From a virus, in the IMG/VR virus record IMGVR_UViG_3300045988_174698: DNA of 64,000 nucleotides; one strand, written 5' to 3'. The stretch's first letter is position 1, and the number at the start of each line of letters is the position of its first letter. Position numbers and translations under genes: made by a program. Below the pieces are notes generated by a model. That model was given only the letters and a program-made list of their open reading frames with translations. It ran no database searches and was not told the DNA's origin. This document shows positions 2,123 to 29,842 of the stretch, in pieces.

Positions 2123-2195
2123 TCAATATGCTTTTGTTTCTGTGTCTATTACATCAAAAAATGATTCATTTACTGTTTTACGATTTAGGTTGAAA

Positions 2196-2621: not shown

Positions 2622-2662
2622 AGTAAAAATTATTTTAATTTTTACTACAAAAATAACGCAAT

Positions 2663-3437: not shown

Positions 3438-3513
3438 TAATATTTAAAATCGTATCTAACTTCATATAATACGATTAAAAGTAAACATAACGTATTACGT
3501 TAGATCTTTTAAA

Positions 3514-4740: not shown

Positions 4741-4773
4741 AGATACAAAAAATTGATTAGATATAAAAATAAG

Positions 4774-5619
4774 CTACTCTTTACTTGTCTTTTCGAATAT
4801 TGGTAATGAAATATTTCTTGCTTCAGCCACTCGTTGAATATTAGACATTAAAGTATTCCACTTATTTATATGATAATTTAAATCATTATCTAGTAATAAT
4901 AATATTTTATCTCTTAATGTCTTTAGTGCTATAGTTGACAATGATGTTATCTTAGGTAAAGAGGTAAGCTGAACTAATGAACGAAATTCAGAAAAAGATA
5001 ATCCTGTTGGACTAACTCGAAGTTTAATATCAGGATTCAAACATAATCTTTCCTTAATTACTTCCATTCTGTTACGTACTCTACCATTACTATCGACTTC
5101 AGTTAACTCAACTTTTTCATTATCCGTTAACCAGATTCCCTGTGCTAAAATAAACTTATCAGTAATCATTTTCTTATTTAAAATATCAAGTTTATCAAAA
5201 CAAGCATCCATGAGACGACTAACAGTTACCTTTTCAAAAATAGGCTCAAGTCCGTTAAATAGAACTGAAATAGATTCATTAAGTATATCCTCTTCATGGG
5301 AGGATCTTTGACTATTTATATAGTCAAGAATATCTTTCTTTGTTTTTATATCAGTGTCGCAGTCATGTAAAAGATATCTTACAAATAACTCTGTATTACA
5401 AGCATCCCATGTTTTATGAATATTTTCTCGAACGACATATTTGCCAGGGGACCATGGATATGCATTGTATAACATCTCATAACAGTGCTTATATCATTTC
5501 CTAATATCCTCTTCAGGAGCTGTCATAAGTTTTACATCGTTACCACTTTTATCTTTCCACGTTAATGATTCAATAGAATCCATTGCATTTTGCAATTTTT
5601 CACCAAATTCTGTACACAT
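4774..5619 (-). CDS. hypothetical protein
   Basis: ORF 4774..5475 extended upstream through a TGA to ATG at 5617-5619 (MCTEFGEKLQ...RKWYKHCYEMLYNAYPW...). Frame rechecked. Confidence 0.35.
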
Positions 5620-5620
5620 A

Positions 5621-5971
5621 CTATTCAAAATCAAATTTGTCTTGTTTACATATATCTTTTTGTTTAAAGAAATTTATAAAATAATTATTACTATAATTAT
5701 AAACTTCAAAATCTTTTAAATTTTTGTTAAACCATTGAGTAATACCACCTTCTACATATTGAAATTGTAAATAACCAATATCACCAACTTCAAATGTGTC
5801 AGCAGTATCCCAGTTTGGAAGTCTAACTATTGTAACATATTTTAAATCGTCTGTTATATTACGATTTAGGTCTTCAACAACTATTTCAGTATATTGTCCT
5901 TCTTGAATAACTAAGACTTTACAATATATTGTTACTGCTTGAGGGGTCATAATATCTACAGGTTTCTCCAA
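5621..5971 (-). CDS. hypothetical protein
   Basis: 116-aa ORF that overlaps the 3' end of the phosphatase gene in another frame. Confidence 0.25.
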   Translation of the reverse strand: MEKPVDIMTPQAVTIYCKVLVIQEGQYTEIVVEDLNRNITDDLKYVTIVRLPNWDTADTFEVGDIGYLQFQYVEGGITQWFNKNLKDFEVYNYSNNYFINFFKQKDICKQDKFDFE

Positions 5972-6725
5972 TGTTAAGTAATCGAAAACAGATATTATCT
6001 ACAATTTGAGTATTGCTTTGATGGAAATGTCCGTAATACCAATTAGTAATATCATCTTTATAATCATTATAGACCATATCCATAACAGCTCTCTCCTCTT
6101 CTATATCCTTTAATAATTCATTATCGTATTGAGAGTATTCTTGTACAATACTCCCCTTATCTGTTGGAAAACAGAATGAAGGAGCTGTATGAGAACAGAT
6201 AATATCTATTTTCGCGTCAACTTTAGGTCGATATTGAACAATCTCATCTTCCCAATACGTCTTAGGAGCATTTAGTTCTGCTGTTTTATAGTCACAATTG
6301 TGGTATTTCATATATCTAACTATATTAATAGAATCATTTTGCTTCCTAATAATTCTATCTACAGATGTAGCTCCTCCAATACAAAGAATATTAAGATTAC
6401 AAGTATTTATTATAGTATAGTCAGGAACACACTTAACATAATTAGTATTAATAAGTTGATTATTGTAATACTTTGGGTTACTGTGATTTCCTCTAATCCA
6501 AATAAATATATCATTAAACTTTTTTAATACTTTATGTAATTCAGGAATTACATGATCTGTATAATGTTTCAACCGCTCAAATCCTATTCCCACATCTCCG
6601 CAGAAAATAAATACTGAATTTTTTATTTTATATTGTCGAATGTTATGTATAACTGAATTCCATTCTCCATGTACATCTCCAACTATGTAGAGGTCTTTAA
6701 TTGTATCAGGAAGATTAATTGTCAT
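5919..6725 (-). CDS. calcineurin-like metallophosphoesterase (PP-lambda-like Ser/Thr phosphatase)
   Basis: YIVGDVHGE, FCGDVGIGFER and IRGNHS match the DxH(x)nGDxxDRG(x)nGNH(D/E) metallophosphatase signature. Confidence 0.7.
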   Translation of the reverse strand: MTINLPDTIKDLYIVGDVHGEWNSVIHNIRQYKIKNSVFIFCGDVGIGFERLKHYTDHVIPELHKVLKKFNDIFIWIRGNHSNPKYYNNQLINTNYVKCVPDYTIINTCNLNILCIGGATSVDRIIRKQNDSINIVRYMKYHNCDYKTAELNAPKTYWEDEIVQYRPKVDAKIDIICSHTAPSFCFPTDKGSIVQEYSQYDNELLKDIEEERAVMDMVYNDYKDDITNWYYGHFHQSNTQIVDNICFRLLNIGETCRYYDPSSSNNIL

Positions 6726-6731
6726 AACTTT

Positions 6732-7100
6732 TTATATTTTAAACCCTCCGATTGGAAGGGAATAAATATTATATATTTTGTTGTTAATCTCTATATAATA
6801 TCTATAAGAGTTAAAGATATTAATACAATAAAAGAAATCATTCTTATACTTAATATCACTAAGATAAAAACCTGATTCCTCAGGATTACTAAGGAGGTTT
6901 ATATCAAATTTTAGAAGATATGGTGGCAAGATATTCACATTACTAACTCTAAAGACTATTTTTAGTCCAAAACTAGAGTTGAATTTAGTTTTTGGTACAT
7001 ATGCTAAAACCCCCATTCCAATATTTAAACAGGCTTTAATATAATTAGGATCGTTTCTGTAGACAATTATGTTATGCTGTTCGAGCTCCAGTATAGACAT
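6732..7100 (-). CDS. hypothetical protein
   Basis: 122-aa ORF with an ATG at 7098-7100. Confidence 0.3.
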   Translation of the reverse strand: MSILELEQHNIIVYRNDPNYIKACLNIGMGVLAYVPKTKFNSSFGLKIVFRVSNVNILPPYLLKFDINLLSNPEESGFYLSDIKYKNDFFYCINIFNSYRYYIEINNKIYNIYSLPIGGFKI

Positions 7101-7333
7101 ATTAGTCTATGTCCCCCTTATAGGCATTCATAATAGATTTTTCCTTTCTAAGCCAAGAGCCCTCAGTTTCTGCTATATCTAGAACAGTACGGCTAATAGA
7201 TTCTTCTTCTCAATTTTGTTATCGTATAGCTTTTTATCTATACTTCTTATACTTCATTTTGTATAAGCTCAGCATATATTTTCACCTTCAGCATTATCTG
7301 TTAAGGGTAAATCACTCGTGGGTTTATTTTATT

Positions 7334-8089
7334 CTAATCTGTTATTAATATTTTATAATTGTATATAGCGTTGTATACCTGTTTTGGAAGTATATTTTTA
7401 TATTTGTTAGCATATTCCTTTAAACAAGTTTCTTTCTCTTTCTTATATGCTCTAAATGCTTCTTCAATTGTAGAAAAAGTTCCTATATGTTTTTTCTTAT
7501 TCATATAATTAATTTGAGCAATTATTTTATTGTTTTTGATTCTGACTCCTATTGGAGTATTACCTCTACATTGAAATCTTCAAGTAATAGCAGTATTAAT
7601 TTCCTTTGGGATAAAACAACAATAATTTGGAGAATAAATTTTATTCCCCTTTACCAAGAAATCTTTATCTATAACAAATGATTCGTTATAACAATTATTA
7701 TAATATCAATCCGCAAAATTCTGAAAATTTAATCATTCTTTACAAACAGTAACTCCATTTCCTCCATAGTTATTATATTCAGAAACTTTTGGACAATAAC
7801 ATCTTCCAATCATTTCTTTCCAAATTTTATAACATCGAGTTTGTTTACCGTTTTTGTCCCTAGAACTATATTGACCTACTCCAAAATAACCTGTATTGTA
7901 TACAGACGGATAATAAGGATCTTTAACAGAGCCCTTTTTTAGATTACCTAGTTCAGCAGTAATAATAGTACCTGTTTGTAAAAATTTTATTATTACATTA
8001 TATGAATCAATATATTCTAGAATGATAAAATCTCCAGAACTATTTGAAGTCATAATTTTATTTTCATAAATTTGTTTGTTATTTGTCAT
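7334..8089 (-). CDS. HNH-family homing endonuclease with a C-terminal AP2 DNA-binding domain
   Basis: ORF 7733..8089 continues through two TGAs to a TAG at 7334-7336 (frame checked). VIDKDFLVKGNKIYSPNYCCFIPKEIN is HNH_3-like. IGVRIKNNKIIAQINYMNKKKHIGTFSTIEEAFRAYKK is an AP2-type fold typical of phage homing endonucleases. Confidence 0.6.
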
Positions 8090-8264
8090 ATATCATAATA
8101 TTTTAATTAAACATAGTACAAATATACAAATTCTTTTTCAGACTCACAAACAAATTAGGTTCAAAACCTATGCGTTACACTGACTTAATATATTACTATT
8201 AAGTTTAGCACGGTATTAGCATCTCAGCCTTCACCGTTTTTGATTTATTCTATTCTACTTATTT

Positions 8265-8753
8265 CTAAGCAGACAGGCAGAATTCTACCTGCTCGTTCAC
8301 TAACATTCCTGTCTCTTTATCATGCCCGTTCAACCAGTTGAAAGTAGCCCAATCACCCTCATTAGCTGCCTGATCAACAATTTCATTAATCATTTGAGTA
8401 GTTTCAATTTCAAGATCTACGGTAATCTTAAAAGGATCTACCATATCTTCTACTTTCTTATCAAACTGCTCAATAGTAGGATAAATATACTCTGCATCGT
8501 TTTCATTTAAATATTTACGAATCCAGGAATGATGTAAGTATTCTTCATCTGCTCTTTGTTTGTAATACTCTTCAAGAATAACAAATCCTCTAACACCAAA
8601 GTAATTTGCAAAATTCATATACGCATTATGATTTTGCAATTCATGCTTAAGCTGACGAAGAAGTAGTTTTTGAATTTCAGCACTTAAAGTGCATTCACGC
8701 CTACTAACATCCTTTTTTTCTACAGGATCATTTGCCTCATTTTTAATTATCAT
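8265..8753 (-). CDS. ferritin-like (non-haem ferritin/FtnA-type) protein
   Basis: QRADEEYLHHSWIRKYL and INEIVDQAANEGDWATFNWLNGHDKETGMLVNEQVEF align with FtnA ([48 protein letters not shown]). Length of 162 aa fits a ferritin monomer. Confidence 0.6.
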   Translation of the reverse strand: MIIKNEANDPVEKKDVSRRECTLSAEIQKLLLRQLKHELQNHNAYMNFANYFGVRGFVILEEYYKQRADEEYLHHSWIRKYLNENDAEYIYPTIEQFDKKVEDMVDPFKITVDLEIETTQMINEIVDQAANEGDWATFNWLNGHDKETGMLVNEQVEFCLSA

Positions 8754-8790
8754 AAATTAGGTAATTTAAAGTATAAAACATTTCTGCTAT

Positions 8791-9153
8791 CTAGTAAATA
8801 TGGATCCTATAACTCTCCTTATGAAAGTTAAAGTTAAATTGATTTTCTAATAACCAGTAAATATCAGAATATATTGTGAATTCATGATTATTAATTACAA
8901 ATCTAAGATAAAAACTATCATAAGTAGTTAAATACCTAGTAATATCTTGTTCATTAAAATAGATAATATTTATACCCTCAAGTTCAATACCTAGATTCTC
9001 AAACTCTACTGTAAGTTCTTCACTTCCACAAACATCAATGATAGATAAGTACCTGTCAGTTTTTTTGTCAAATCCATCAATATACCCTCTCATGTGATTA
9101 ACACAAGGATACCAATGATTACCAACTCTTTTCAAAGTTAATTTCTTTTCCAT
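8791..9153 (-). CDS. hypothetical protein
   Basis: 120-aa ORF; its start overlaps the RNase H stop. Confidence 0.3.
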   Translation of the reverse strand: MEKKLTLKRVGNHWYPCVNHMRGYIDGFDKKTDRYLSIIDVCGSEELTVEFENLGIELEGINIIYFNEQDITRYLTTYDSFYLRFVINNHEFTIYSDIYWLLENQFNFNFHKESYRIHIY

Positions 9154-9155
9154 AG

Positions 9156-9626
9156 TTAATTCTGTTTAATATCTTCCTTTGGATTGATTACTGTTGCAGC
9201 AATATTAGCATAACAATCTGCAAGTTCATTAAATTTATTATTATTGTGGCCTTTTAATCAAAAGAACTTTACTTTATGAAAGTGTAATAGATTAACTATT
9301 TTAACTCATAGATCCATATTCTTCTTTGAATTATCTTGCTCTGCAATTCATCTATATACATGACCATTGTTAATACTACTAACAATATAACTTGAATCAG
9401 AATATATTTCTAAATTCCTAGGTTCCTTAAAATATTCTAAGGAGTATAGAACTCCCATTAATTCTGCTCTATTGTTAGTAGTATGTATATAACCTTGATA
9501 TAAAATCTTAATTACTTTGTTGTCCTCAGTAATTATAGAGGCATAACCCCCTTGGTCTGTTGTTGGTTTGTAACTTCCATCAGTATAGATTCTAATCATC
9601 AATAATTTCAGCATCGTCAAACTCAA
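9156..9626 (-). CDS. ribonuclease H (RNase HI family)
   Basis: IYTDGSY...GGYA..., TNNRAELMGVLYSLE and EIYSDSSYIV match RNase HI. Past two TGAs the C-terminus reads NMDLWVKIV...VKFFWLKGHNN, like E. coli NVDLWQRL...IKWEWVKGHAG. These alignments put Trp at the TGA positions. Confidence 0.75.
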
Positions 9627-9749
9627 TAACTCTTATAGTTCCCTTAAAGGCAGCCTCTCTAGAAACTAGAAAGTTATTAAAATCTTCTATAAATGCATCT
9701 TTGTTTTTATCTTCTATACTAATATAACCATTAAAAATGATGTCAACCA

Positions 9750-10130
9750 TTACTCAACAAAATAATTGGAATTAAAAAGCTTAGGATTATGTCTTTTTAA
9801 AAGTTTCTTCTCCTTTTCTATCATAATACTCATGACTTCATCAGCATAGTCATTTCTACGACCTCCAAAGTTTTCAATAACATGAAACGGATTCTCTAAA
9901 GCATTACGCTCAGCAATCTTTCGACCAATAGCTTTATTAAAGTTATCTACAGGCTGACATACTGCAAGTCCAAACTTAATAGTATGACTATTATCATCAT
10001 AAACTGCAGCTATAGTATACCTACGACATGGTTTAACATCATAAACAACAGTTTTCTCAATAATAGGATTCACAGAAACAGTGCCTTGATATACAGGAGC
10101 ACTGTAATAATACTTAACTACTCTACTCAT
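9750..10130 (-). CDS. hypothetical protein
   Basis: 126-aa ORF ending at a TAA. Confidence 0.3.
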   Translation of the reverse strand: MSRVVKYYYSAPVYQGTVSVNPIIEKTVVYDVKPCRRYTIAAVYDDNSHTIKFGLAVCQPVDNFNKAIGRKIAERNALENPFHVIENFGGRRNDYADEVMSIMIEKEKKLLKRHNPKLFNSNYFVE

Positions 10131-10167
10131 ATCTTTCTTATTTTTTTATGATTTACATTTTAAATTG

Positions 10168-10416
10168 TTACTTCCTAGAAAGCTTACACCTCCATTTTTC
10201 TAGATTTTTACCAAATCTAGCATCAAATATATAATCACAGTAACTATAATCATTAACTATTGTTCTAGGATTAGGAATATTACAATCAAAGTCTTTATCT
10301 TGAAGTTTAAAAAAATTACTTTTTAAGTAATTCTTTATTCTTCTTTTAACAATTCGATGATAAATATTCTTTATACCTTTATCCTTGTAAACTGGAACCT
10401 TATAACTCTTTGACAT
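10168..10416 (-). CDS. hypothetical basic protein
   Basis: 82-aa K/R-rich ORF. Confidence 0.25.
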   Translation of the reverse strand: MSKSYKVPVYKDKGIKNIYHRIVKRRIKNYLKSNFFKLQDKDFDCNIPNPRTIVNDYSYCDYIFDARFGKNLEKWRCKLSRK

Positions 10417-10438
10417 ATTAAGATAATATTAAATATAA

Positions 10439-10987
10439 TTAAGTTACTATATTTTTCATAAATGATATTCTAGCAATGTTTCGTAAATCACTAGATAATA
10501 CTTTAACAACTATATCTTGTCGGCCATTTCTTTGATAATAAGTATATAAAGACCTAGACTTATCTATACTCTTATTTGTTACCTTAGAATCAATTAGTTT
10601 AATTATGTCAGTTCGTCTACATACAATTCAATCTTTCTCTCCTTCAAATGCTATATAATCAGCCTTTCCAAATAGTCATCCAGGATTTCCTCGAACATTT
10701 TTTAGTTCTACTCAGTTGATATTATAATCTGGAGTATTATCAGCTCTACGATTTTTTTTTGCGCTCTTGATGTCAAATGTAAAAGTTCTATTATTATATG
10801 TTCATATAATATCAATATGATCATACATATCTTGATACTTAGATGGAATCTGAACAGTTCCTCCAACCTGAGATAGTAACAATTCAGAAAACTCAGATTC
10901 TTTTATCTTTCCTAATTTAGAGCAATCTATATATTTATTCATAATTGTGACCCCATTTTTCAGCTTCTTCAAATGTACTAAAAACAA
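10439..10987 (-). CDS. hypothetical protein, TGA-containing
   Basis: ORF 10802..10987 continues through four TGAs to a TAA at 10439-10441 (frame checked). Confidence 0.3.
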
Positions 10988-11198
10988 GATATTCTGGAAT
11001 CATTGTTACTATATCTTCAAAAGCATAAAATATATGAGGACCAGAATCTAAATATGAGACTATAATATCCTTAACTGTTCTAGGAGTAGTATCTACAGTA
11101 TAAGTATCTACAAAAACTCCTGCTTCAAATTGATGGGTCTTTTGACAAATAAATACTGTCTGCCCAATATCAAATTTGGTTTCTATACTAATTTTCAT
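10935..11198 (-). CDS. hypothetical protein
   Basis: 87-aa ORF. Confidence 0.25.
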   Translation of the reverse strand: MKISIETKFDIGQTVFICQKTHQFEAGVFVDTYTVDTTPRTVKDIIVSYLDSGPHIFYAFEDIVTMIPEYLVFSTFEEAEKWGHNYE

Positions 11199-11200
11199 TT

Positions 11201-11809
11201 TAGTTATCTATTATTTCAATATATCTCTGTTTAGGAGTAGTAACGTAAGGATTTTGATCTATAATAATAACTTCTATAACAGTATGTTTTCTAGTAAACC
11301 ATCGTGGTAGAAACCATTTTCGTGGTTTAATAGGTTCTTTATGAGAACTTAGAGTTATATACTTTTCATTATTATACTCATTACTTAAAGCTATTGTTCC
11401 TGGATAGGAAAGGTGTAGACAACTTCTGTTTCATTTATCTACAATACAAGTATCTAACACAAACCCAGGTTCTCTAAATATTGTATCTCTAATAACAATA
11501 GTATCTTTCTTAGAAAAATGTTCTAATTGATATTGTAACGCTTTAATTTTATTATCCTTAACTTTGTTCTCATTAGCTACTTTTTTCATTTTAAGCATTA
11601 AAGAATCGCTAAAGTATTCTAATTGCTCAATTGAAAGCTTAAATACACGATTACTTTCTTTTAATCATGAATTTTCCGCAGCATATGCTTTTTCATTATT
11701 TATAGAATTATCTAACGCAATATTCAGATTTCTAATTTTATTGGTCATAAAAATTATAGCCAATACAAGTAAAGTATAACTTAATATTCTTAAAATTATT
11801 TTTTTCATT
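11201..11809 (-). CDS. hypothetical membrane-anchored protein
   Basis: 203-codon minus-strand ORF (frame checked). N-terminus MKKIILRILSYTLLVLAIIFMT is a signal or transmembrane segment; one TGA. The plus-strand ORF 11564..11779 is its antisense. Confidence 0.35.
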
Positions 11810-12161
11810 ATATTAATTCTCTGTTAAAAGTTGAAACTACAAAACTTCGGAATAGAATTAAATCTTCTAGAGCATTATCTAACGATGCTACTTGTTTTTT
11901 AACTCTTAAATATTTTTCAGTAATAATTTGTATAATATTTTTAATATCTCTAATAGAACAAGGATCGTATTCAAACATACATAATCTTCTATTTAAAACA
12001 CCAATAGGCTCATTTGTTAAAATTATAGGAATTCTCTTGTTAGATTGAATTTTTATAACAAAAGGAATAGATCCAAGGTCTACTAATAATTTTAGATATC
12101 TTATATCTACATTATTTGGAAATATAAATCCTGCCTGTTTAAGATTTCTAGTAATTAACAT
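11809..12161 (-). CDS. hypothetical protein
   Basis: 117-aa ORF; its stop overlaps the next start (TAATG). Confidence 0.3.
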
Positions 12162-12204
12162 AGTATTAAAAAATAAGGCATTAGAAAACTAATGCCTTAA
12201 TATT

Positions 12205-12774
12205 TTATTGTTTATTAACAGTGTATCCATGATGTTCTAAAACTAGTTTACATAAGTTTAAGTACTCTTCTACAGTTAAATCACTTTTAGAATAATTAGC
12301 TGCAGGAGTTGTAATACCTAAATTTGATAAATCATTCGACCCGCCTTTAGAAACTGGTATTATATGATCAAAACAATAATCATCTTTTTCTAAATCAATA
12401 GGAGTGCCTGTTAAATAGCACTTTGTTTTTGTGCCAAATTTATTAATAATATCTAAAGTCTTAATTTTATTTAAACTCTTCATTCCTCTATTTTGAAAAT
12501 GTTCAATATATCTCCTTAAACGTTTACGTCATGTTCTATTAGAGATTCTTCTACATCCATGAGAGATTCTAGCACAAAAAGTACATAGTCTAGATTTAAT
12601 TCTCCCCTTAAGTGTATTACGTCATAATGAAGTAGATTTTCGTTGTTTACTATTAGTTATATCATTACAATAATATCCAACAATACTTTTGCTACATCCA
12701 AGTATCTTAGCAATTTCATTATAACTTTTATTATCACTTCTTAAAATAAGAATTTGTTCCTTTAACTTACTCAT
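12205..12774 (-). CDS. HNH endonuclease with N-terminal HTH (homing-endonuclease-like)
   Basis: C-terminus CYLTGTPIDLEKDDYCFDHIIPVSKGGSNDLSNLGITTPAANYSKSD is a canonical HNH motif. The N-terminal extension reaches ATG at 12772-12774 through two TGAs and has an HTH (SYNEIAKILGCSKSIVGYY). Frame checked. Confidence 0.7.
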
Positions 12775-13295
12775 AATCAACTTATTAGCACGAGCTCTCC
12801 GATTCGAACAGAGACCGTAGGGTTTGGAGCCCTACAATACGGTTTTGCTTACCACTATAGTTTTCACTACCAGTTTTACTGTTTGTAGTCTGGACTATAT
12901 CAGCTTGATATACAAGTGTGGCATTTAGTCTCTACACATTTATAGAGTAAAGTAGGATACATAGAGAAGTGTACGGCTTTAATTTTCGACCTACTAAGCA
13001 CTCCGCCTATTTTACACGGCATAAACAGCCTATGTTCTCTACTGTATTTTACTCTAATTTAGCTCGGTATTATCAGCTATCCATATTTCAGGACCTTAGA
13101 CTTTCTTAGAAAGCTGATTCGCATGATTTTTATCATCTTATTTCGCTTTTACCGAATTTGCCACAATTTTCACGCCAAGCGTGCTCCAATTCGAAGACCG
13201 CTGTGCTACCATTACACTAAGCTCGCATTTATTATCTTTAGTTATACAGCAAAGATAACAAAAATCTGTGAACAATCAAAAATTTAATTAACAAA
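12775..13295 (-). ncRNA. ORF-free 520-nt tract with higher GC; candidate structured RNA with a tRNA-like 3' module
   Basis: No ORF of 60 aa or more on either strand. GC is visibly above flanking DNA. Read on the minus strand, 12817-12835 is a perfect 6-bp stem with a 7-nt loop CUCCAAA (anticodon-like CCA), followed by a T-arm-like CTCTG-TTCGAAT-CGGAG at 12797-12813. No matching 5' acceptor or D-arm was found. Confidence 0.25.
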
Positions 13296-14501
13296 TTATA
13301 AAGAAAATTTGCGAATTTTGGTTAAATAAATCTCTTTACGATATTGGTTAACTCCACCATAGTCACCATAACTCATCTGCACTTTACGAAGATGGTATAG
13401 CTTACCTCCCTCTAATTTTAATTTATCTGCTATATCCTTTGGAAAAGTAAAATCAATAACCTTGTCAACTGTTATTTTTTTATAGTTACTATCCTTTGAA
13501 TTTATAACATATATTAAGAAAGCACTTAATATAAGCAGGTACCACTTAATTTCAGAGTAATCTGTAGTGGGTCTTAAAAATCTGAATTCTACAGTTTTAT
13601 GGGCATCACCTGAAATTAAATGCATTATATTCATATTAAAATATCTACCGTGCACTTCCCACTTACGCTCCTCTGTTGAATCATATGAATTAGGTAAATA
13701 AAAACTTTGGTCATCATTATACTTATTACCAGTGAACCTTTTGTAGAATGTAGGGAGAGATGCAATACTCGGAAAAGGTTTATTGTAAGCTTTACCATTA
13801 CTTTTATAGCGTTCTGTATAGTAACTATATCTTGGTATGTACATACTAATAGACCATTGAAAATGGCACCAGAACTTACACAGACGATTAATATAACTAT
13901 TATTAATTGGAAAGTTACCAAAATGAATATGCAAAGAGCAGTTTTTATCGTAAAACGTGTATCTTTCAAGCAGTTTCAAATGCTGTTTAATAATAGGTAA
14001 ATCTATATGTGTTAATGGAAAAGTTACATATTCATGCCCATTAATTGAACCATCATACAGTGGTACTAGATTTGTATCAATACAACTTAACCAAGGTATG
14101 TTTCCTGCGGATGTTTCATATTCAAGGCCAAAGGTAAAGTCTTCAATATATGTAAATTCTTTATCAGGTATTAATTTAATATACTTAGGTTTTAAAGATA
14201 GTTTTGAAAAATTGTAACATCTATCTATTGGATAATTAAACACATATTTAGAATCTGTAATGATATTATTAGATAGTTTTAAATCTATCGTATAGCAACA
14301 AATATTATTTACCCAATATAATGGTATTTTGCAGTTCTCGCGTCTTTCCAAATAGGTAATTTTCCCTTCTATTACTAGAGGAATATTTAGTGGGTCTATT
14401 TCAAAATAACCATATTCTATATATGCGTAATCAATATAGATCACACCTCTTAGTAAGGTATCTCCAGTTTCCCACCTTTTTTTAGTATTATTGTACAGCA
14501 T
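13296..14501 (-). CDS. glutamine-synthetase-like COOH-NH2 amidoligase (Amidoligase_2-type)
   Basis: FTFGLEYETSAG (GxExE metal-binding strand), NCSLHIHFG (HxH) and TVEFRFL (ExR). These are the conserved residues of the GS-like amidoligase superfamily described in phage operons. Confidence 0.55.
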   Translation of the reverse strand: MLYNNTKKRWETGDTLLRGVIYIDYAYIEYGYFEIDPLNIPLVIEGKITYLERRENCKIPLYWVNNICCYTIDLKLSNNIITDSKYVFNYPIDRCYNFSKLSLKPKYIKLIPDKEFTYIEDFTFGLEYETSAGNIPWLSCIDTNLVPLYDGSINGHEYVTFPLTHIDLPIIKQHLKLLERYTFYDKNCSLHIHFGNFPINNSYINRLCKFWCHFQWSISMYIPRYSYYTERYKSNGKAYNKPFPSIASLPTFYKRFTGNKYNDDQSFYLPNSYDSTEERKWEVHGRYFNMNIMHLISGDAHKTVEFRFLRPTTDYSEIKWYLLILSAFLIYVINSKDSNYKKITVDKVIDFTFPKDIADKLKLEGGKLYHLRKVQMSYGDYGGVNQYRKEIYLTKIRKFSL

Positions 14502-15810
14502 CTAAATTAACAAGTCTATTAGTTATAAACTGTAAAATCTGTGTTTCTAGTACTTCAAAATCGAATGTTGTATTTTCTGCATTATTCTTGAAAATTTCAA
14601 AAGCGCTAGGAGCATAGGTATATGTTGTAGAACTTACTCCATCTTTTACATTAACTTTATCAGGAGCATTAAATAGAGTAACATATGATCCTTCCATGTA
14701 CTTCATATAATTGAAGTCTTTGTCAACAGTAGTTAAGACACCATTAATAATTCGAGGATTATATGCAAAGTAATCAATAACTTCGGGACAATAAACAGAA
14801 AGAACATCATTTGTAAAAAGGTCATCTATATTTTCAAGGAAATCATAACTTTCTTTATTGGGTAACAATCGCCCATAGAAGAAGTAGAAAGTATGTCTAT
14901 ATGCGTTAGAGCTGGCATATGCTTCGGGTACTAAATGCCCAGAAGGATAAGCTAGATACATACCGTGTGCTGGAATTTCATTTAACATATACGTACCTGT
15001 AGTTTGACTGTAATATAAGTTATTAGAGGTATATGCTGGGGAATTATCCTTATAAGAAGCACCATATACTGGTATGCAAAGGGTTCTCCTTAATTTTTCA
15101 CGATTAATATTTCTAATACAGTAAACCTTGTTATCCTTAATTCGGCATAACTTATTTACAGGAAATTCATAGATTGTTTTTTTACAGTTGATGGAATATA
15201 GAGAAGCATACATCGACGAAAAATAAAGTTTACCCTCGTTAATCATATAAACTAAAGGTCGCTCAGATTTTGTTTTGTTTTCATTATAACAAGAGCTCCC
15301 TTTGAACATGAGTACTTCTGGAGTCAAAGATCTATAATCTACCATTATAAGAACAGCACAACCTGTATATTCTTCTAGAACATCATATCCATGTTCATAA
15401 ATAATTTCTGCCAAAATTTGAGAATCAGACATACCAAGAGTATTAGGTTCTGGAAGATATTTATTAGATAATTCTCCAATATTAAGAATAGTACCATTAT
15501 GCATTAGTACAAACTCAATTTTGTTACCACGTCTAATAACAACTGGCTGAGCCTGATCTAAATTCACAGGATATCCAGGAGAGGCCTTTCGACAATGTAA
15601 TAAAGCAATAGAAGCTGACTTTGGATAATTTATACTAGTAGTAAAGTTCCTAAATAATTTTCTGTCACTGACTCCATATTCTACCTTACCATCAATAAAA
15701 ATACCACAACTATCTCCCCCTCTTTCATCGTTTAGGGTTCCAAGTATATTAAAGTGGTTTATGTTAAATTCAGTCTTTTCAGTAGAAATTATTCCAGCTA
15801 GTCCGCACAT
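14488..15810 (-). CDS. class II (Ntn) glutamine amidotransferase-like protein
   Basis: N-terminus MCGLAGII has Cys2 as the predicted nucleophile (AsnB/PurF/GlmS-type). GDSCGIFIDG follows. Confidence 0.55.
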   Translation of the reverse strand: MCGLAGIISTEKTEFNINHFNILGTLNDERGGDSCGIFIDGKVEYGVSDRKLFRNFTTSINYPKSASIALLHCRKASPGYPVNLDQAQPVVIRRGNKIEFVLMHNGTILNIGELSNKYLPEPNTLGMSDSQILAEIIYEHGYDVLEEYTGCAVLIMVDYRSLTPEVLMFKGSSCYNENKTKSERPLVYMINEGKLYFSSMYASLYSINCKKTIYEFPVNKLCRIKDNKVYCIRNINREKLRRTLCIPVYGASYKDNSPAYTSNNLYYSQTTGTYMLNEIPAHGMYLAYPSGHLVPEAYASSNAYRHTFYFFYGRLLPNKESYDFLENIDDLFTNDVLSVYCPEVIDYFAYNPRIINGVLTTVDKDFNYMKYMEGSYVTLFNAPDKVNVKDGVSSTTYTYAPSAFEIFKNNAENTTFDFEVLETQILQFITNRLVNLDAVQ

Positions 15811-16589
15811 ATTCCATAAAGTTTAATTAGATGTTCTGCCAGTACTTTATTAGATGTATTAATACACTTTTGAACTAAATCTCCTTCTGGCAAAGGAAAT
15901 CCTTCATTAAACATATCTACAGCTAACATAGTTTGTTTATAAATCATTGGAAGGTATTTGTCATTAAGCATAAAGCTACTTAGACATCTTGCTTCTACTC
16001 CCCACTCAGGACAACGGAAACTTCCTGCTTGACCATATAGAGTTCTTCTAAAAGTATCTCTATCATATAATACAGAAGGAACTCCACAGCATAGATCAAA
16101 GAACTTAATAAGCTTAACAGATGTATCAAAATTAGGGTTATCATATCCTATGTGAATGTGTGAACCTGCCACTCTTCTATTATCAGGATAACCTTGTGGC
16201 TTATCGTTTTCACACTCTGTATAAGCATCATAATCACTAGAACATCCAATTTCATTTGCTTTAGGATCAAGTAATTGATCTTCAGGCACGGGCATAGATG
16301 CACTACAACAAATATCAAGATTGTTATCGAATTGTTTAACCCAATTACGAATCCAATCTTTCATATATTTAATAGAATCTACAAATTCATTACTAGAAGT
16401 ACAAGGTGGGATATTAAATTCTCCTAAAATACAGTCAATCTCCACACCAAATCCTTTTGGCATGCCTTTAGTATATGGTTTACCTTTTTCTCCTGGAATT
16501 ATTCCAATTGCAGATACTACTTGGTTTGTTTTTGTATTAAAAATAAATAACTCGGGGTCTGCTCCAACTGTAATATTTTTAATTTTCAT
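15798..16589 (-). CDS. second GS-like carboxylate-amine ligase (GCS2/YbdK-like), tentative
   Basis: N-terminal strand ITVGADPELFIF resembles the GxExEF first strand of GCS2/amidoligase enzymes. The rest was not recognised. Confidence 0.35.
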   Translation of the reverse strand: MKIKNITVGADPELFIFNTKTNQVVSAIGIIPGEKGKPYTKGMPKGFGVEIDCILGEFNIPPCTSSNEFVDSIKYMKDWIRNWVKQFDNNLDICCSASMPVPEDQLLDPKANEIGCSSDYDAYTECENDKPQGYPDNRRVAGSHIHIGYDNPNFDTSVKLIKFFDLCCGVPSVLYDRDTFRRTLYGQAGSFRCPEWGVEARCLSSFMLNDKYLPMIYKQTMLAVDMFNEGFPLPEGDLVQKCINTSNKVLAEHLIKLYGICAD

Positions 16590-17226
16590 CTGCTATTAAT
16601 TTATCAATTATTTCATTTATTCTTATAACAATTGGTGATTCAGGTCTCATATATTCAGGATGTCCTTGGATAGCCAAACACTTTGGAAGATTTGGTCTGT
16701 CATACAAAACAATTTCAGGTTCACAAGGAGGAGACATAACATTATCTCCCTCATATATACTTGACCGATGACTAGTTGAATAAAACAAACATGTCCAATA
16801 CTTATATGGTATTATAAATGGATACTGCATTTGATGGTGTGTACTGGTAATTTCATACATTTTATTCGTACTTATCTCTGTAATAGAGTGAGTTATTCGA
16901 ATAGCATGATTTTCCACATTCTGAATAAGTATGCCACCATTCATAATACATAAATATTGACTGCCTCGGCAGATCCCCACAGCTAACTGATCAGGTCTGA
17001 TTTTCTCAAATTCTTTCTTTTCTGCGAGATCCCTTTGTAAATTAGCACAAGTAGTAGGATGAGGTTTACAGTTATACAAAGAAGGGTGTACATCTTCTCC
17101 ACCTGTAAAAATAACAATATCTGCATCGTTAATATCATCTACTAGCTCACGCTTAGTAATAAAATTAGCATAGTGTACTTGATTACCAACGACATATACT
17201 TTTTTTGTTTTTAGCATAGTATTCAT
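16579..17226 (-). CDS. class I glutamine amidotransferase / C26 gamma-glutamyl-hydrolase-like protein
   Basis: IVIFTGGEDVHPSLY and LAVGICRGSQYLCIMNGG (GxCxGxQ nucleophile elbow) and GHPEY (His of the triad). Confidence 0.55.
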   Translation of the reverse strand: MNTMLKTKKVYVVGNQVHYANFITKRELVDDINDADIVIFTGGEDVHPSLYNCKPHPTTCANLQRDLAEKKEFEKIRPDQLAVGICRGSQYLCIMNGGILIQNVENHAIRITHSITEISTNKMYEITSTHHQMQYPFIIPYKYWTCLFYSTSHRSSIYEGDNVMSPPCEPEIVLYDRPNLPKCLAIQGHPEYMRPESPIVIRINEIIDKLIADEN

Positions 17227-17881
17227 TCGCTATAAAATTAATTCCCTTGACAATTTGAGGTAATTGCTTCGAGTTAAATACTCGAAGCAAATGGCACAAA
17301 CTATTATGTTCAGCCATAATCCTACAAAAACTTTCACTATAGTTAAAGTCCCTTCTAATTAAATTAAACTGGCACTTAGGATTAATGTTATAAAATGTTA
17401 GGTTATCTAATCCTGGGCAATGACATCTTCTTCCATCATGAAACAATGTAATATAAAGTTGCATAATTTGAGTAATATCCAATTCTGGAAAGTTTGCTCT
17501 ATTTTGCCATGCAGAGTATAATAATAACCAAAACGGATTTTCGTATACATATCTAATATACATAGCACTATAGACAAAGAATCTATTGTCAGGAGCACAC
17601 CTAATTTGTAATTTGTATGAATGTGTACTCTTTACAAGTGATATTAATGTAAACCCCAGTAGTCTTGAGATTTCCTTAAAGTACTCAATTAATGTTTTCG
17701 TATCAAATGTACAGTAGTTAAGCTGAACTTGTCTACTTCGAGGCCATATAATAGTAGCATAATAATAACCATTAAATTCACCTTGAGAACATCCCCTACT
17801 AAAACAAGCCATATTTTCATAAAAGTAATTACCAGCATAGTAATTACATTTATATTCTTTTCCTCTAAAATCTAGTATCAT
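17183..17881 (-). CDS. hypothetical Cys-rich protein
   Basis: 232-aa ORF. Overlaps the GATase-I gene start by about 44 nt. Confidence 0.3.
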   Translation of the reverse strand: MILDFRGKEYKCNYYAGNYFYENMACFSRGCSQGEFNGYYYATIIWPRSRQVQLNYCTFDTKTLIEYFKEISRLLGFTLISLVKSTHSYKLQIRCAPDNRFFVYSAMYIRYVYENPFWLLLYSAWQNRANFPELDITQIMQLYITLFHDGRRCHCPGLDNLTFYNINPKCQFNLIRRDFNYSESFCRIMAEHNSLCHLLRVFNSKQLPQIVKGINFIANEYYAKNKKSICRW

Positions 17882-18608
17882 AGTACTTTTTTAAATGATT
17901 CCCATAATAAGTTATCCCAAAAGAAGCCAGAGAAGGAGCTGTATTACTTTCAACAATGATATAACTATTATCACTACACAATATATCAAAGCAGGCAATT
18001 GTGAGGTCCATTTGTTTTAATGCCTTAATACAATCACTAATTATATTTTCCCAACATACAGGTAATTTGTGTTCCTCTGTTACTAAAACAAATATTGAAT
18101 TATCAGCATGTTTATGCCATTGTACTTCAGCGTCTTGTTTCAGCACTTTTTTACAAGCATAAAAACAACCATGATGAACATCAATATGTACTCTATATTC
18201 ATTTGGGAAGAAGTAATACTTTTCAAACACGAAATCCCTTATATTAACATTATTACATAGATCGTCTAAAGATTTGGGATTATCAATATAATAAATATTC
18301 TTCCCTTTCGATGAATGTTTATGTTTTGCTATAAGAATTTTGTGCTGCATAAAAAACTTATAAATGCTTGCTTTGTTAGAAGAACTAATCCATTCACTAT
18401 GAGATACACCCGCTTTGTCAAAGGCACGCTTCATTAATATTTTATTCCCAGAAGTTTTAACTCCCTCTATAGTATTAATTTCCAAATATTTATATTTAGA
18501 AATTAAAGGAGTTGTGCTCCCTAAACGTAGTAGTACTCTTTGATTAAAAGGTATACTACGTAAAGGAGCACAACTTGTATTTGGACTGAAAACTCGAAGT
18601 TTTAACAT
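17865..18608 (-). CDS. ATP-grasp ligase (RimK/glutathione-synthetase-like)
   Basis: ILIAKHKHSSKGKNIYYI (ATP-binding lysine strand) and IIVESNTAPSL (the E-N pair of the ATP-grasp C-domain). Confidence 0.5.
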   Translation of the reverse strand: MLKLRVFSPNTSCAPLRSIPFNQRVLLRLGSTTPLISKYKYLEINTIEGVKTSGNKILMKRAFDKAGVSHSEWISSSNKASIYKFFMQHKILIAKHKHSSKGKNIYYIDNPKSLDDLCNNVNIRDFVFEKYYFFPNEYRVHIDVHHGCFYACKKVLKQDAEVQWHKHADNSIFVLVTEEHKLPVCWENIISDCIKALKQMDLTIACFDILCSDNSYIIVESNTAPSLASFGITYYGNHLKKYYDTRF

Positions 18609-18609
18609 A

Positions 18610-19152
18610 CTATAGTTCTAATGCCTTATTATAGCAGTACACAGCCAGTTCCTTCTGGGTTAACTTATTATAATCAGCAAATTCAGCCCCATGGTCCTGT
18701 AAAAGCTTTGCAATATACTGTAGTTCGTGTTTTTTTAGTTTGCTAAATTGAGTGGCCGAGAATTCTGCGACCTTCTTATCAAGAGCAATTAATTTGAGGA
18801 ATACTTTTCCAAATGGTTTATTATTAAATTTATTAATATATACCTTTTGGTCAATATTATCCTCTACTGGGATAGCTTTAGGTTCAGGGTTAGGAACAAC
18901 CTCGTCATATGGGATAATCATAAATTCAGGTACCCATATGCCTATAGATAGAAAATATGGAATATCTGGGTCATTCTTATCTACATCCTCAATAACAGCA
19001 ACATTACCAAAATAGGGAAAATCAGAAAATAAGACATATTTCATGTCTTTGTTACAATAAACACCTTCTAAGTCAGGTGCTTCCTTGAGTAGATTATCCT
19101 TAAGTAAACAATCAAGATTTTTAATGATAACTTTGTCTCCTTGTTCAAACAT
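18610..19152 (-). CDS. hypothetical protein
   Basis: 180-aa ORF. Confidence 0.3.
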   Translation of the reverse strand: MFEQGDKVIIKNLDCLLKDNLLKEAPDLEGVYCNKDMKYVLFSDFPYFGNVAVIEDVDKNDPDIPYFLSIGIWVPEFMIIPYDEVVPNPEPKAIPVEDNIDQKVYINKFNNKPFGKVFLKLIALDKKVAEFSATQFSKLKKHELQYIAKLLQDHGAEFADYNKLTQKELAVYCYNKALEL

Positions 19153-19166
19153 AACTATTTTTATTT

Positions 19167-20243
19167 TTATTTGAAAAATGATAAATATTCTAATGGACTA
19201 ACAATTCTATATTTAGTCTTTCTAAACTCTAAAAGGTCAAAAGAATCTGAATAACTCATCATTGACCTTAAGTAGTCAACGAAATTTTCACACCAATCTT
19301 GTAACTTATACAAAACTGGAACTGTGGTTTCAATACCCTCAGCAGTTTTGAGTTTTTGGTTTCCTATTTCTATCTGTGCTTTTTTAGTAGACATACCATA
19401 GTATTTACGTCTGAGTCCTAGATTTGGATCTGTAACAGGTAGTAACTCTCCACAGGCTTCTTGAGATTGTGCAAAGAGTTTTCCAACCATTACATAATCA
19501 GCTCCAAGAGCTAGTGCTTTAATAATCTTATCATAATTATCAAATCCTCCGTCCGCAATAATAAATGGAACACTTTTGTATGGATGAGTTATTGAGTTAC
19601 AACCCAAGTAAAAACCAGAGTCACCCGCTATATTAACTACTTTTGTTTCTTCAATACATTTTTCTATAGCCCGCTTTTTATCAACAACTTCCTTAATTAA
19701 GGAAGCCATTGCATAGTGTATTCCACCATTAGCAGAAGTAGTACATACAGAACCTCCCCCTACACCTATCCGTACAAAATCAATTCCTGCTAGTGAATAA
19801 TCAGCATAAGTATCAGGGTTAGCAATATTGCCCGCCATTAATGACAATCGACCTCCAAATATAGACTTTGCTTGTGAGCATAAATCAATTAACTTTAACA
19901 TGTGGCCATTAGCAATATCAACACACACATAACGAATATCATTGGTGGTATCATATATATTTTCAAAATCTGTAATAAATCTTTCAAACTCAGATAAGCC
20001 AAGTGCAACAAACGTACTTGTAGACAACTCCCATCGTTTATCATAATCTACTCCTCTTGGAATAATTGTATTGATCTTATTTCTAAGAAAAACTTCATAA
20101 TTATTCTCATTAATAACAGAATTCATAGGAGCAGTAAATAACGGCAGCATACCATCAAAGTTATATGGATTACAGTCTGCACGATGTTCTATTCTACTGG
20201 TTCTAGCTGGTACTAAACAAATATCATTTAACCCATATGTCAT
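19167..20243 (-). CDS. GMP reductase / IMP dehydrogenase family protein (GuaC-like, no CBS domains)
   Basis: RIGVGGGSVCTTSANGG matches the IMPDH/GMPR catalytic Cys loop G(I/V)GxGSxCTT. IIADGGFDNYDKIIKALALGADYVMVGKLFAQSQEACGE matches GuaC SDGGC...GADFVMLGGMLAGHEESGG. Length of 358 aa. Confidence 0.7.
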   Translation of the reverse strand: MTYGLNDICLVPARTSRIEHRADCNPYNFDGMLPLFTAPMNSVINENNYEVFLRNKINTIIPRGVDYDKRWELSTSTFVALGLSEFERFITDFENIYDTTNDIRYVCVDIANGHMLKLIDLCSQAKSIFGGRLSLMAGNIANPDTYADYSLAGIDFVRIGVGGGSVCTTSANGGIHYAMASLIKEVVDKKRAIEKCIEETKVVNIAGDSGFYLGCNSITHPYKSVPFIIADGGFDNYDKIIKALALGADYVMVGKLFAQSQEACGELLPVTDPNLGLRRKYYGMSTKKAQIEIGNQKLKTAEGIETTVPVLYKLQDWCENFVDYLRSMMSYSDSFDLLEFRKTKYRIVSPLEYLSFFK

Positions 20244-20416
20244 TTTTAATCTCTCTTAATTAGTTTATTTTTCTGTTCCTCAGTATCCCTAAATTTTTTT
20301 ATTTTTCTTTTCTTATTTAGACGAGCAATCTCTTCCTCGTACCTATTATATTTATCCAATTGATTACCTCGAATAAATTTACCCATGATAAAAAACAGAA
20401 TTTCAATTTTGATTTA

Positions 20417-21199
20417 CTATTGAATCTCTAAAGTACCTGGTTCCAGTCCAAGTTCTTTCTCGACTTCTGCGATTGTTTTCTTTACAACCTTATTCTTTAC
20501 TTTTGGCCAAGCAACATCCATTTTTGTGTAATCACTAAGTTTAAAACAGTGTGGTGTTGGAACAAAAATCTTCTTAACTTGGTAGAAACTCCCATTTTTA
20601 GGGGAATTAAAGCATCCACTTAAATAACCCTTAATTTCTCCTTTATTGTTAACATAAACAATAGCTTTAGAAGAAATAATAAATCCAAAATACTCTTGAT
20701 CTTTAACTATTAACTGTACTATTCGCCCAGGTAAAAACTCAGACTTAAAATCATTATTAAGATTAGAATCTACCTTATTATCCTCAACCTTATTTTTTTC
20801 TTTACCTAGAATCTTTTCAAACTGGTCTATAATAGATATGTCATTTGATTTTAATTCAGGTGATTCAAGTAATTTTAATAGATTCTTTTCTGATTTTAAA
20901 ATAATATCACTATATAGAGCAAGTTTATTCTCTTCTATATCATTAATACCTAACTCTTTAAGGATAGTGTTGTCATCATCTGAACAGAAGATATCACTAT
21001 CTCCAGTAAGGTAATGAATATTCTGATTATATGTAACAACATAATAAGATCTTTTATCTGTATCAATTAAGATCTTATAAGGGTGTCCTGAAAGTAATAA
21101 AGATATACTTACCTTAGGATAGTTTAATGTATATCCGTATCTACTTAAGATAAACAAAATGGTATTTAAACTGTTACCATTATATAATAAATAACGCAT
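20417..21199 (-). CDS. hypothetical protein
   Basis: 260-aa ORF. Confidence 0.3.
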   Translation of the reverse strand: MRYLLYNGNSLNTILFILSRYGYTLNYPKVSISLLLSGHPYKILIDTDKRSYYVVTYNQNIHYLTGDSDIFCSDDDNTILKELGINDIEENKLALYSDIILKSEKNLLKLLESPELKSNDISIIDQFEKILGKEKNKVEDNKVDSNLNNDFKSEFLPGRIVQLIVKDQEYFGFIISSKAIVYVNNKGEIKGYLSGCFNSPKNGSFYQVKKIFVPTPHCFKLSDYTKMDVAWPKVKNKVVKKTIAEVEKELGLEPGTLEIQ

Positions 21200-21252
21200 A
21201 ATTTGATTTTTTTGTTCTTTTTAGTTAAAAAACAGTAACAAGTGAAGGCTCA

Positions 21253-29824: not shown

Positions 29825-29842
29825 AAGTTAAAAAGATTTTTG

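Follow-up and report, generated by a model that had tools for sequence, protein, structure and literature searches.

What is encoded by the tract at positions 12775-13295 of the virus record IMGVR_UViG_3300045988_174698 (IMG/VR)? The DNA analysed is one stretch of 64,000 nucleotides, referred to here as the window, and a sequence-only reading of it had singled out this tract, located beside an HNH endonuclease gene, as free of open reading frames (ORFs), enriched in GC, and carrying a hairpin and a T arm like those of a transfer RNA (tRNA). It had offered as candidates a structured RNA with a tRNA-like 3′ domain, an unusual or permuted tRNA-Trp relevant to UGA decoding, the core of a group I intron belonging to the adjacent endonuclease gene, and a degraded tRNA, and it had proposed a covariance search with Rfam and a search for compensatory base changes in relatives as checks. 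Most of the descriptive part of that reading was confirmed. The longest stop-to-stop frame over the tract has 74 codons, both in code 11 and with TGA as sense; the GC content is 0.369 compared with 0.306 in the window, at the 95th percentile of 521-nt windows; and the minus-strand hairpin at 12817-12835 has a perfect 6-bp stem and the loop CUCCAAA, followed by GGU and by a T arm at 12813-12797. The analysis described below led us to conclude that the tract is very probably a single minus-strand gene for an opal-suppressor tRNA, one that reads UGA as tryptophan, interrupted between U34 and C35 by a group I intron that is predicted to be self-splicing.

Exons of an interrupted tRNA gene

The 5′ acceptor strand and the D arm, which had been reported as missing, are present on this strand after all (13226-13203), some 400 nt farther upstream. 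They belong to a 33-nt 5′ exon (13226-13194, minus strand) composed of GCGAGCU, U8 and A9, the D arm GUGU-AAUGGUA-GCAC with G18 and G19, A26, the anticodon-stem strand GCGGU, and C32, U33 and U34. The intron, 346 nt long and without an ORF, occupies 13193-12848 of the minus strand, begins with CGAAUUGGAG and ends with GGUAAG, its terminal G being position 12848. The 3′ exon (12847-12789, minus strand) consists of CAAA, the second anticodon-stem strand ACCGU, AUU, an extra (variable) arm at 12817-12835 with the stem GUAGGG/CCCUAC and the 7-nt loop CUCCAAA, GGU, the T arm CUCUG-UUCGAAU-CGGAG at 12797-12813, the acceptor strand AGCUCGU, and the discriminator base G73 at 12789; the terminal CCA is not encoded. 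The anticodon UCA is split, with U34 at 13194 and C35 and A36 at 12847-12846. The acceptor strands (the 13226 end and 12796-12790) pair over 7 bp, the first pair being G1·U72, and GCGGU pairs with ACCGU around the ligated loop CUUCAAA. The TTCGAA element said to recur at the far end of the tract is present, at about 13185-13200, but the T arm is not repeated there: the element is made of the end of the 5′ exon, helix P1 and the internal guide of the intron (GGUCUU|CGAAUUGGAG), and it resembles a T loop through the common hexamer TTCGAA.

The 7-bp acceptor stem, D arm, anticodon arm, T arm and discriminator base of a tRNA cloverleaf come together solely after removal of the intron. When 13193-12848 was removed in silico, ARAGORN reported a cloverleaf tRNA with the anticodon UCA and a long variable arm, which measures 92 nt to the discriminator base (93 bases as delimited by the program). 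On the unspliced DNA the tRNA was called only in intron mode, and therefore the standard scan of the window gave 12 tRNAs without this one. The CUCCAAA hairpin, interpreted earlier as an anticodon arm with the anticodon CCA, was placed by ARAGORN as the variable arm, an assignment also supported by covariation. The suggestion of an unusual or permuted tRNA-Trp for UGA decoding was correct in that this is a Trp-type UGA reader, but the gene is not permuted and the anticodon is UCA.

The exon boundaries are corroborated by relatives. The predicted ligated junction, GCGGUCUU|CAAAACCGU (GCGGTCTTCAAAACCGT), is found uninterrupted in 32 viral contigs, about 17 distinct ones of which carry the same kind of tRNA; in these intron-less alleles, GCGGU-CUUCAAA-ACCGU comes immediately after the 5′ acceptor strand and the D arm. 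A metagenome scan with the 5′ exon gave at least 37 copies with an intron and at least 27 without, and among the matches listed there are 37 distinct mature tRNAs and 31 distinct introns. One mature tRNA among these matches occurs with identical exons both in intron-less form and with an intron of 593 nt. Nucleotides 3-33 of the 5′ exon are 100% identical to the 5′ exon of the relatives L009-L016.

The comparison proposed as a check for compensatory changes gave a positive answer for the exons as well as for the intron (see below). An alignment of 19 distinct mature sequences, in which the anticodon stem could not vary because the search pattern prescribed it, was analysed for covariation. In the cloverleaf plus extra arm, 98.2% of the cells are paired and 15 pairs are changed on both sides; none of 500 shuffles equalled this covariation, and slid controls paired in 38-45% of the cells. 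Covariation was seen in four helices, including the T stem, where four of the five pairs covary. Compared with its nearest relative, the allele of the window has C-G instead of G-C at pair 2-71 and CUCUG/CGGAG instead of GAGGG/CCUUC in the T stem.

Directly upstream of the 5′ end of the tRNA there is a conserved hairpin of 8 bp (UUAUCUUU...AAAGAUAA; 13232-13258, minus strand), the stem of which is ACUACCUUU/AAAGGUAGU, with compensatory changes, in the relative L049. It may end transcription of the amidoligase gene or act as a signal for processing.

The intron, its relatives and the neighbouring HNH gene

Helix P1 (13184-13196, minus strand) is formed by C32, U33 and U34 of the exon and C1 of the intron, which pair with the guide GGAG and leave a U34·G wobble at the 5′ splice site. 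The splice-site pair (columns 8-16) is UG in nine of nine sequences, and all P1 pairs are invariant in these nine homologs. The UUG directly 5′ of the guide can pair, as P10, with the CAA that opens the 3′ exon. In the Rfam alignment the 5′ strand of P3, UGUGGCA (13159-13165, minus strand), pairs with UGCCACA (12917-12923), and three of its pairs are changed on both sides; P4, read from the sequence, is UCGGUA/UACCGA and is preceded by an AAU junction. The 3′ part of the core (12892-12932, minus strand) contains, in this order, the 5′ strand of P7 (12932-12926), J7/3, the 3′ strand of P3 (12923-12917), the small hairpin P8 (12916-12904), J8/7 and the 3′ strand of P7 (12897-12892), with P3 and P7 forming a pseudoknot. 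P7 is G-(bulged A)-GACUA/UAGUCC, the bulged A standing before a G-C pair; a P7 with a bulged nucleotide beside G-C is the usual guanosine-binding arrangement. The strands GUAGAGACUAAAU and GAUAUAGUCC correspond to the R and S elements classically conserved in group I introns. The P9 domain (12851-12889, minus strand) has an outer stem ACUAC/GUGGU, a variable hairpin, and the hairpin GUAGU-GAAA-ACUAU with a GNRA loop. This arrangement replaced a first model of P9, ACUAC/GUAGU, that gave a C·A mismatch in most relatives. The P9 pair at column 335 varies between CG, UG and UA, and the hairpin capped by GAAA covaries across intron forms (UAGU/ACUA, CAGU/ACUG, CGAU/AUCG and UAGC/GCUA). A terminal G is present throughout, as all 31 distinct introns among the matches listed end in GUAAG right before CAAAACC.

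The intron lineage of the window comprises, among the matches listed, 17 distinct copies of 341-385 nt that are 74-99% identical. Nine copies of this lineage were used for a covariation model, in which 97.9% of the cells are paired and 13 pairs are changed on both sides; no shuffle of 500 was as good, and slid controls paired in 32-41%. Double changes were found in P3 (three), P6 (two), P6b (two) and P9 (one), and also in P5b, P6a, P6c and P9a. A sister intron lineage shows a compensatory change in P7 itself, GAGCA/UGCUC versus GAGUA/UACUC. An unconstrained minimum-energy fold recovered P2, P3, P4, P5 and P6, the minimum free energy having a z of -3.3. The Rfam search produced a partial result: the model Intron_gpI aligned in a 361-nt search (15.4 bits, E=0.13, model positions 50-157 on 13165-12917), with assignment of P3, P4, P5, P6, the 5′ strand of P7 and P3′, but the score is below threshold and the match was absent from the 1-kb search.

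At least seven intron forms, 341-707 nt long, are inserted at the same U34|C35 site in related phages, some of them with PD-(D/E)XK or HNH ORFs. Relatives found through the neighbouring amidoligase gene have a homologous tRNA at the same genomic place with introns of 527-707 nt at U34|C35, and further forms of 583, 593, 605 and 629 nt are among the matches listed for the metagenome set. In the longer introns an ORF located in the P1 loop encodes a PD-(D/E)XK endonuclease (Pfam PDDEXK_5, 54 bits; PDB 2OST, E=4e-4), and 2OST is I-Ssp6803I of the Synechocystis tRNA-fMet intron. This ORF is intact in L015, truncated in L009 and internally deleted in L010; the intron of L013 has an HNH endonuclease ORF in its place. 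After the ORF the longer introns keep the GGAG guide and have a P2 with a GAAA loop and a P3 of CACGAU/AUCGUG. The U before the splice site, the terminal G and the guide pairing are kept in every intron form. Since several intron forms and intron-less alleles are found at one site, this position in the tRNA is a hot spot of group I intron mobility, occupied by an optional intron.

The occurrence of group I introns in the anticodon loops of bacterial tRNAs is well known, and the classical tRNA-Leu intron is inserted after U34 ('CUU/...g/', type '3Ug'). The intron described here shares with it the insertion position, the U-1·G wobble, the terminal G, the small size and the optional ORF. The difference lies in the host gene, which is a Trp-type opal suppressor of a phage and not a cellular sense tRNA, and in the presence of several unrelated-looking intron 5′ parts at a single site. 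No close relative of the window was found among the INPHARED phage records, in which pieces of the intron core gave short matches to unannotated stretches of crAss-like and Enterococcus phages. Two other group I introns with the same P7/J8-7 core (TAGAGACTAAAT...GATATAGTCC) were noticed at L057:1318-1365 and L058:5422-5467, in apparent protein-coding contexts of unrelated viral contigs; the one in L057 has the P9 and 3′ end of the tRNA introns.

The gene that follows the tRNA (12774-12205, minus strand) encodes a free-standing HNH endonuclease of 189 amino acids (Pfam HNH_4, 26.6 bits, cut-off 22; PHROG 6050), the N-terminus of which gave sub-threshold helix-turn-helix matches, the best being HTH_38 at 21.4 bits (cut-off 27). 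The ORF starts 14 nt past the discriminator base, outside the intron and the tRNA. It has two in-frame TGA codons and no TGG; therefore, synthesis of the protein would need the spliced suppressor. The gene is present after six near-identical pre-tRNAs (L001, L002 and L004-L007) and absent after those of L003 and L049-L059, and because of this polymorphism it is regarded as an independent element. The protein thus combines a nuclease domain, a location beside an intron-containing gene, its presumed target, and variable presence among close relatives, as free-standing homing endonucleases do. Downstream of it there is a terminator-like hairpin followed by a T run (12174-12199, minus strand), which in L009 stands directly after the tRNA. 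Identity between the window and L009 is 98.8% as far as 13194, where the 5′ exon ends; beyond this point no similarity is left until the alignment resumes at 12204. Since the homology breaks at the insertion site, the intron, the 3′ exon and the HNH gene appear to have been exchanged as one block relative to L009, a pattern such as homing with co-conversion would leave. The HNH endonuclease probably moves intron, 3′ exon and its own gene together, and by analogy with collaborative homing its targets would be the intron-less alleles.

Collaborative homing is a comparable situation, reportedly described by Zeng, Bonocora and Shub in 2009 for a psbA intron of cyanophages with F-CphI, a T7-like phage PhiI also being mentioned in this connection. 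The two have in common that the group I intron has no ORF, that a free-standing HNH gene adjoins the interrupted gene, and that intron, flanking exon and endonuclease form a block which, compared with the closest relative, is different as a whole and breaks at the insertion site. In the present case, however, the presumed target is a tRNA gene, and copies of this intron are also found with no HNH gene beside them.

TGA decoding, tRNA identity and the extra arm

The phage uses UGA as a sense codon. With TGA read in this way, ORFs of 100 codons or more cover 0.71 of the window instead of 0.54, and the longest ORF grows from 444 to 782 codons. The gene at 51988-54240 (plus strand) has 11 TGA codons and no TGG, and the one at 54713-55762 (plus strand) has five and no TGG. 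In the helicase gene at 3514-4737, TGA codons 14, 64 and 157 are located at columns occupied by W in every one of the 38 homologs with identity below 50%, and a helicase homolog from JGI that uses the standard code has TGG at those three positions in a gene without TGA. These results indicated that TGA stands for tryptophan. The helicase is 28-39% identical to proteins of Bacteroidota phages, and an assignment of the phage to the Zeta crAss-like group is at present a lead.

The use of TGA is not uniform along the window. The 13 consecutive ORFs between 13296 and 22997 have no TGA and the genes at 315-12774, on the other side of the tRNA, have many, which places the suppressor at the border of a standard-code block. 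A suppressor beside a standard-code block is the arrangement described for recoded phages as 'code change modules'. No other UCA tRNA was found in the 64-kb window by ARAGORN or Rfam. In the short loci with intron-less extra-arm tRNAs, the comparison of ORF coverage between code 11 and TGA as sense was too noisy to show that all come from TGA-recoded phages. The standard-code block upstream of the tRNA (13296-22194, minus strand) encodes an amidoligase, glutamine amidotransferases, a phiEco32-like COOH-NH2 ligase, a peptidase C26, an IMPDH/GMP-reductase-like protein and an HD-domain protein.

The tRNA has a Trp-like body, with G73, G5-C68, U31-A39 and a Trp-type D arm. Bacterial tRNA-Trp is identified by G73, A1-U72, G5-C68 and the anticodon C34 C35 A36 (PMC9976931). 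G73 and G5-C68 are invariant in the 19 distinct relatives, and the Trp-like ones of the 37 tRNAs among the matches listed end in G, which the tRNA for selenocysteine (tRNA-Sec) L083 does not. The anticodon departs from the identity set, being U34 C35 A36, and an intact CUCCAAA loop is found in the extra arm instead. Taking together the Trp-like identity set and the meaning of TGA, the tRNA would most likely be charged with tryptophan by the tryptophanyl-tRNA synthetase (TrpRS) of the host.

The extra arm has changed in its stem and not in its loop. In the 19 distinct relatives four of the five stem pairs are changed on both sides and the loop sequence UCCAAA is invariant; among the matches listed, the loops of the 37 distinct tRNAs are CUCCAAA (28), GUCCAAA (8) and GUCCAAC (1), and the loop was not what retrieved most of these tRNAs, which were found through the anticodon arm, the intron, a neighbouring protein or the 5′ exon. 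Ordinary tRNA-Trp has CUCCAAA as its anticodon loop, both in the phage gene L008 and in E. coli. L008, a class I tRNA-Trp(CCA) from an unrelated phage, had also been matched by a pattern made of extra arm and T loop, and was set aside. The association with the anticodon was examined in distinct viral-contig tRNAs with the same D arm (GUGUAAUGGUAGCAC): a long extra arm was found in 17 of 22 UCA tRNAs and in none of 101 CCA tRNAs (Fisher p = 9e-17). The loop includes UCCAA in 16 of the 17 and UCCAU in the other one, and 5 of the 22 UCA tRNAs do not have a long extra arm. The stem covariation, the invariant loop and the coupling to UCA argue that the extra arm is selected and tied to the change of anticodon.

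In appearance the extra arm is a Trp anticodon arm that has been retained or duplicated. A more speculative explanation, possible in our view although doubtful, is that it acts as a relocated identity element, the copied Trp anticodon stem-loop (N-UCCAAA) letting a host TrpRS that reads C34 C35 A36 charge a UCA suppressor. The arm resembles that of class II tRNAs (Ser, Leu, bacterial Tyr and Sec) in being a long helix between the anticodon stem and the T stem; it differs in that the body and identity positions are Trp-like and in that its loop is a conserved 7-nt look-alike of an anticodon loop. In tRNA-Ser the length of the variable arm matters and its sequence does not (PMC9976931). A strict scan of a genome collection for extra-arm tRNAs gave no matches, and most of what a loose scan recovered were genuine tRNA-Sec genes with UCCAAA in the variable arm, accompanied by a small number of Trp-like extra-arm tRNAs on contigs of metagenome-assembled genomes (MAGs). 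Since genuine tRNA-Sec genes have it too, UCCAAA in a variable arm is not by itself specific to the phage Trp-like family. As separate observations, four GTDB MAG contigs (L061, L080, L082 and L089; bins Coriobacteriia, Treponema and Bacilli) carry a Trp-like tRNA(UCA) with a UCCAAA extra arm and different anticodon stems, these short contigs being probably phage or prophage DNA, and L063, L065, L067 and similar loci of Caulobacteraceae and other Alphaproteobacteria are 8-bp-acceptor tRNA-Sec genes with GUCCAAAAG in the variable-arm loop.

Alternatives, course of events and known systems

Several observations weigh against an intron-split opal suppressor. P1 has just 4 bp and P10 just 3 bp. 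The gathering score of Intron_gpI is 50, far from the 15.4 bits obtained, no match to this model appeared in the 1-kb or whole-window Rfam searches, where 12500-13500 at E<=10 gave a weak half-tRNA match only, and the intron of L015 had no match to it either. P7 and P8 are invariant within the intron lineage of the window, their support coming from the sequence match and the sister lineage only. The allele of the window has G1·U72 and not the A1-U72 typical of bacterial tRNA-Trp, which is found in 16 of the 19 relatives. In addition, the window covers 64 kb, the whole genome probably measuring about 170 kb, and another UGA decoder or a phage TrpRS may be encoded elsewhere. The low Intron_gpI score weakens the case little, since the seed of the model holds no bacterial introns (Williams, bioRxiv 10.1101/2020.01.27.920355). 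This score and the decay of intron ORFs in some relatives (the truncation in L009 and the internal deletion in L010) would also fit a dead tRNA(UCA) gene, a pseudogene with an inserted element that is no longer spliced. The exons, however, are intact, with compensatory pairing in 37 of 37 distinct tRNAs among the matches listed, with or without intron; the pairing of the intron core is kept through the 13 pairs changed on both sides; the splice-site rules hold in every intron form; and the phage depends on TGA decoding. A dead gene is thus very unlikely, and the degraded tRNA of the sequence-only reading can be set aside.

The other alternatives assign a different function to the parts of the gene. 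ARAGORN labels the spliced molecule 'SeC', a name that it gives to any UCA tRNA, and the long variable arm combined with the anticodon loop CUUCAAA, as well as the UCCAAA found in the variable-arm loop of some genuine tRNA-Sec genes, would agree with a tRNA that inserts selenocysteine at UGA. Against this, the acceptor stem has 7 bp and not 8 (a 7/5 layout), and the D stem has 4 bp with a 7-nt loop containing GG where 6 bp with a 4-nt loop would be expected; the genuine tRNA-Sec genes recovered as by-catch do show the 8-bp acceptor form. Furthermore, the TGA positions align with Trp/TGG in homologs, and selenocysteine insertion needs a dedicated signal at each site, a poor fit with 11 TGA codons in one gene that lacks TGG, so that we find this function scarcely credible. 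Another alternative keeps the CUCCAAA hairpin as the working anticodon arm, the mature product being either a tRNA-Trp(CCA)-like molecule or a structured RNA whose 3′ domain resembles a tRNA. Together with the 3-nt spacer and the T arm, this hairpin does have the geometry of an anticodon arm and T arm, the Rfam tRNA model aligns the equivalent part of L015 in this way (18.4 bits, below threshold), and the loop equals the anticodon loop of the L008 tRNA-Trp. Nevertheless, a second and better-placed anticodon arm, GCGGU-CUUCAAA-ACCGU, follows the D arm directly in every intron-less allele. Using this UCA arm gives the standard class II layout, with a long variable arm; using the CCA arm leaves an additional arm between D arm and anticodon arm, as in no known tRNA architecture, and does not provide the UGA reader that the phage needs. 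A working CCA arm is consequently judged highly improbable. There was, finally, the proposal of an intron of the adjacent endonuclease gene, or of an HNH gene encoded within an intron, suggested by the adjacency and by the intron-encoded HNH ORF of L013. A group I intron is indeed present, but it interrupts the tRNA gene; the HNH ORF lies beyond the discriminator base, outside intron and tRNA, and L003 and L049-L059 have near-identical pre-tRNAs without it, which leaves almost no room for either version.

For the intron-split opal suppressor the following course of events is proposed. The precursor would be transcribed at the end of the TGA-free gene block, and the intron would fold with P1 formed by the exon CUU and the intron guide GGAG. 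Free guanosine would attack after U34, the terminal G (12848) would then take the place of the guanosine, and ligation of the exons would create the loop CUUCAAA. RNase P, 3′ trimming and CCA addition would yield the 92-nt mature tRNA which, charged with tryptophan by host TrpRS, would decode the many in-frame TGA codons of other phage genes. The intron is an optional mobile element and the HNH gene encodes a separate, free-standing endonuclease of the homing type. A weaker additional reading is that the required excision of the intron may set the timing of the switch to the alternative code.

The phage shares with the stop-codon-recoded gut phages (Borges et al., bioRxiv 10.1101/2021.08.26.457843; Yutin et al. 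2021, PMC7886860; Zeta crAss-like phages, PMC12386605) the low GC content, the size of about 170 kb, the change of TGA to Trp in part of the genome, the suppressor beside a standard-code block, and abundant introns and homing endonucleases. High intron density and opal suppression are known in large crAss-like phages (PMC12386605). According to the surveys, no suppressor tRNA could be detected in most TGA-recoded genomes, two papers stating this for many such phages, and their TGA decoding was left open; in the present phage an intron conceals a suppressor that does exist. In the literature searched, the coverage of which is incomplete so that a prior description is possible, there was no report of an intron in a phage suppressor tRNA or of an extra arm resembling the Trp anticodon arm.

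In one widespread gut phage lineage, then, the 'missing' TGA suppressor would be present and hidden from tRNAscan- and ARAGORN-style searches by a group I intron. Considering the at least 37 intron-containing and at least 27 intron-less copies, intron-aware tRNA searches should recover many such suppressors and improve code prediction and annotation. The locus has the appearance of a real, functional intron-split gene for a Trp-type opal-suppressor tRNA with an adjoining homing-type endonuclease; elements of these kinds are known, and the extra arm is possibly a new principle. A mobile ribozyme is located inside the one gene that the alternative code of the phage requires, and whether its splicing is tolerated or used for timing is a testable question. 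Should the extra arm prove to be a synthetase recognition device, tRNA identity would gain a new principle, and a design for efficient opal suppressors would be ready to use; as a relocated identity element the arm would make this a natural tRNA in which the decoding anticodon is separate from the charging anticodon.

Other features of the window were noted in passing. A tmRNA-like reading of the tract, with tRNA-like ends around a long insert, had been dropped, as the D stem and anticodon arm are complete and a real transfer-messenger RNA (tmRNA) is found by Rfam elsewhere in the window. That call (RF00023, 52.3 bits, gathering score 47) is at 29842-30263 of the minus strand, inside a tRNA-rich region, and is absent from the ARAGORN output. 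Rfam also reported two over-long tRNA-like genes that ARAGORN missed, at 42925-43029 and 42661-42789 of the minus strand (105 and 129 nt; 34.7 and 32.8 bits), whose variable regions hold insertions of about 32 and 57 nt and whose anticodon loops are odd, with 6 or 8 nt; the one at 42925-43029 has A1-U72, G73 and a Trp-like D arm. Within the window the GC content is highest at 46400-46900 (up to 0.51, compared with 0.306), with overlapping ORFs on both strands at 46687-47211.

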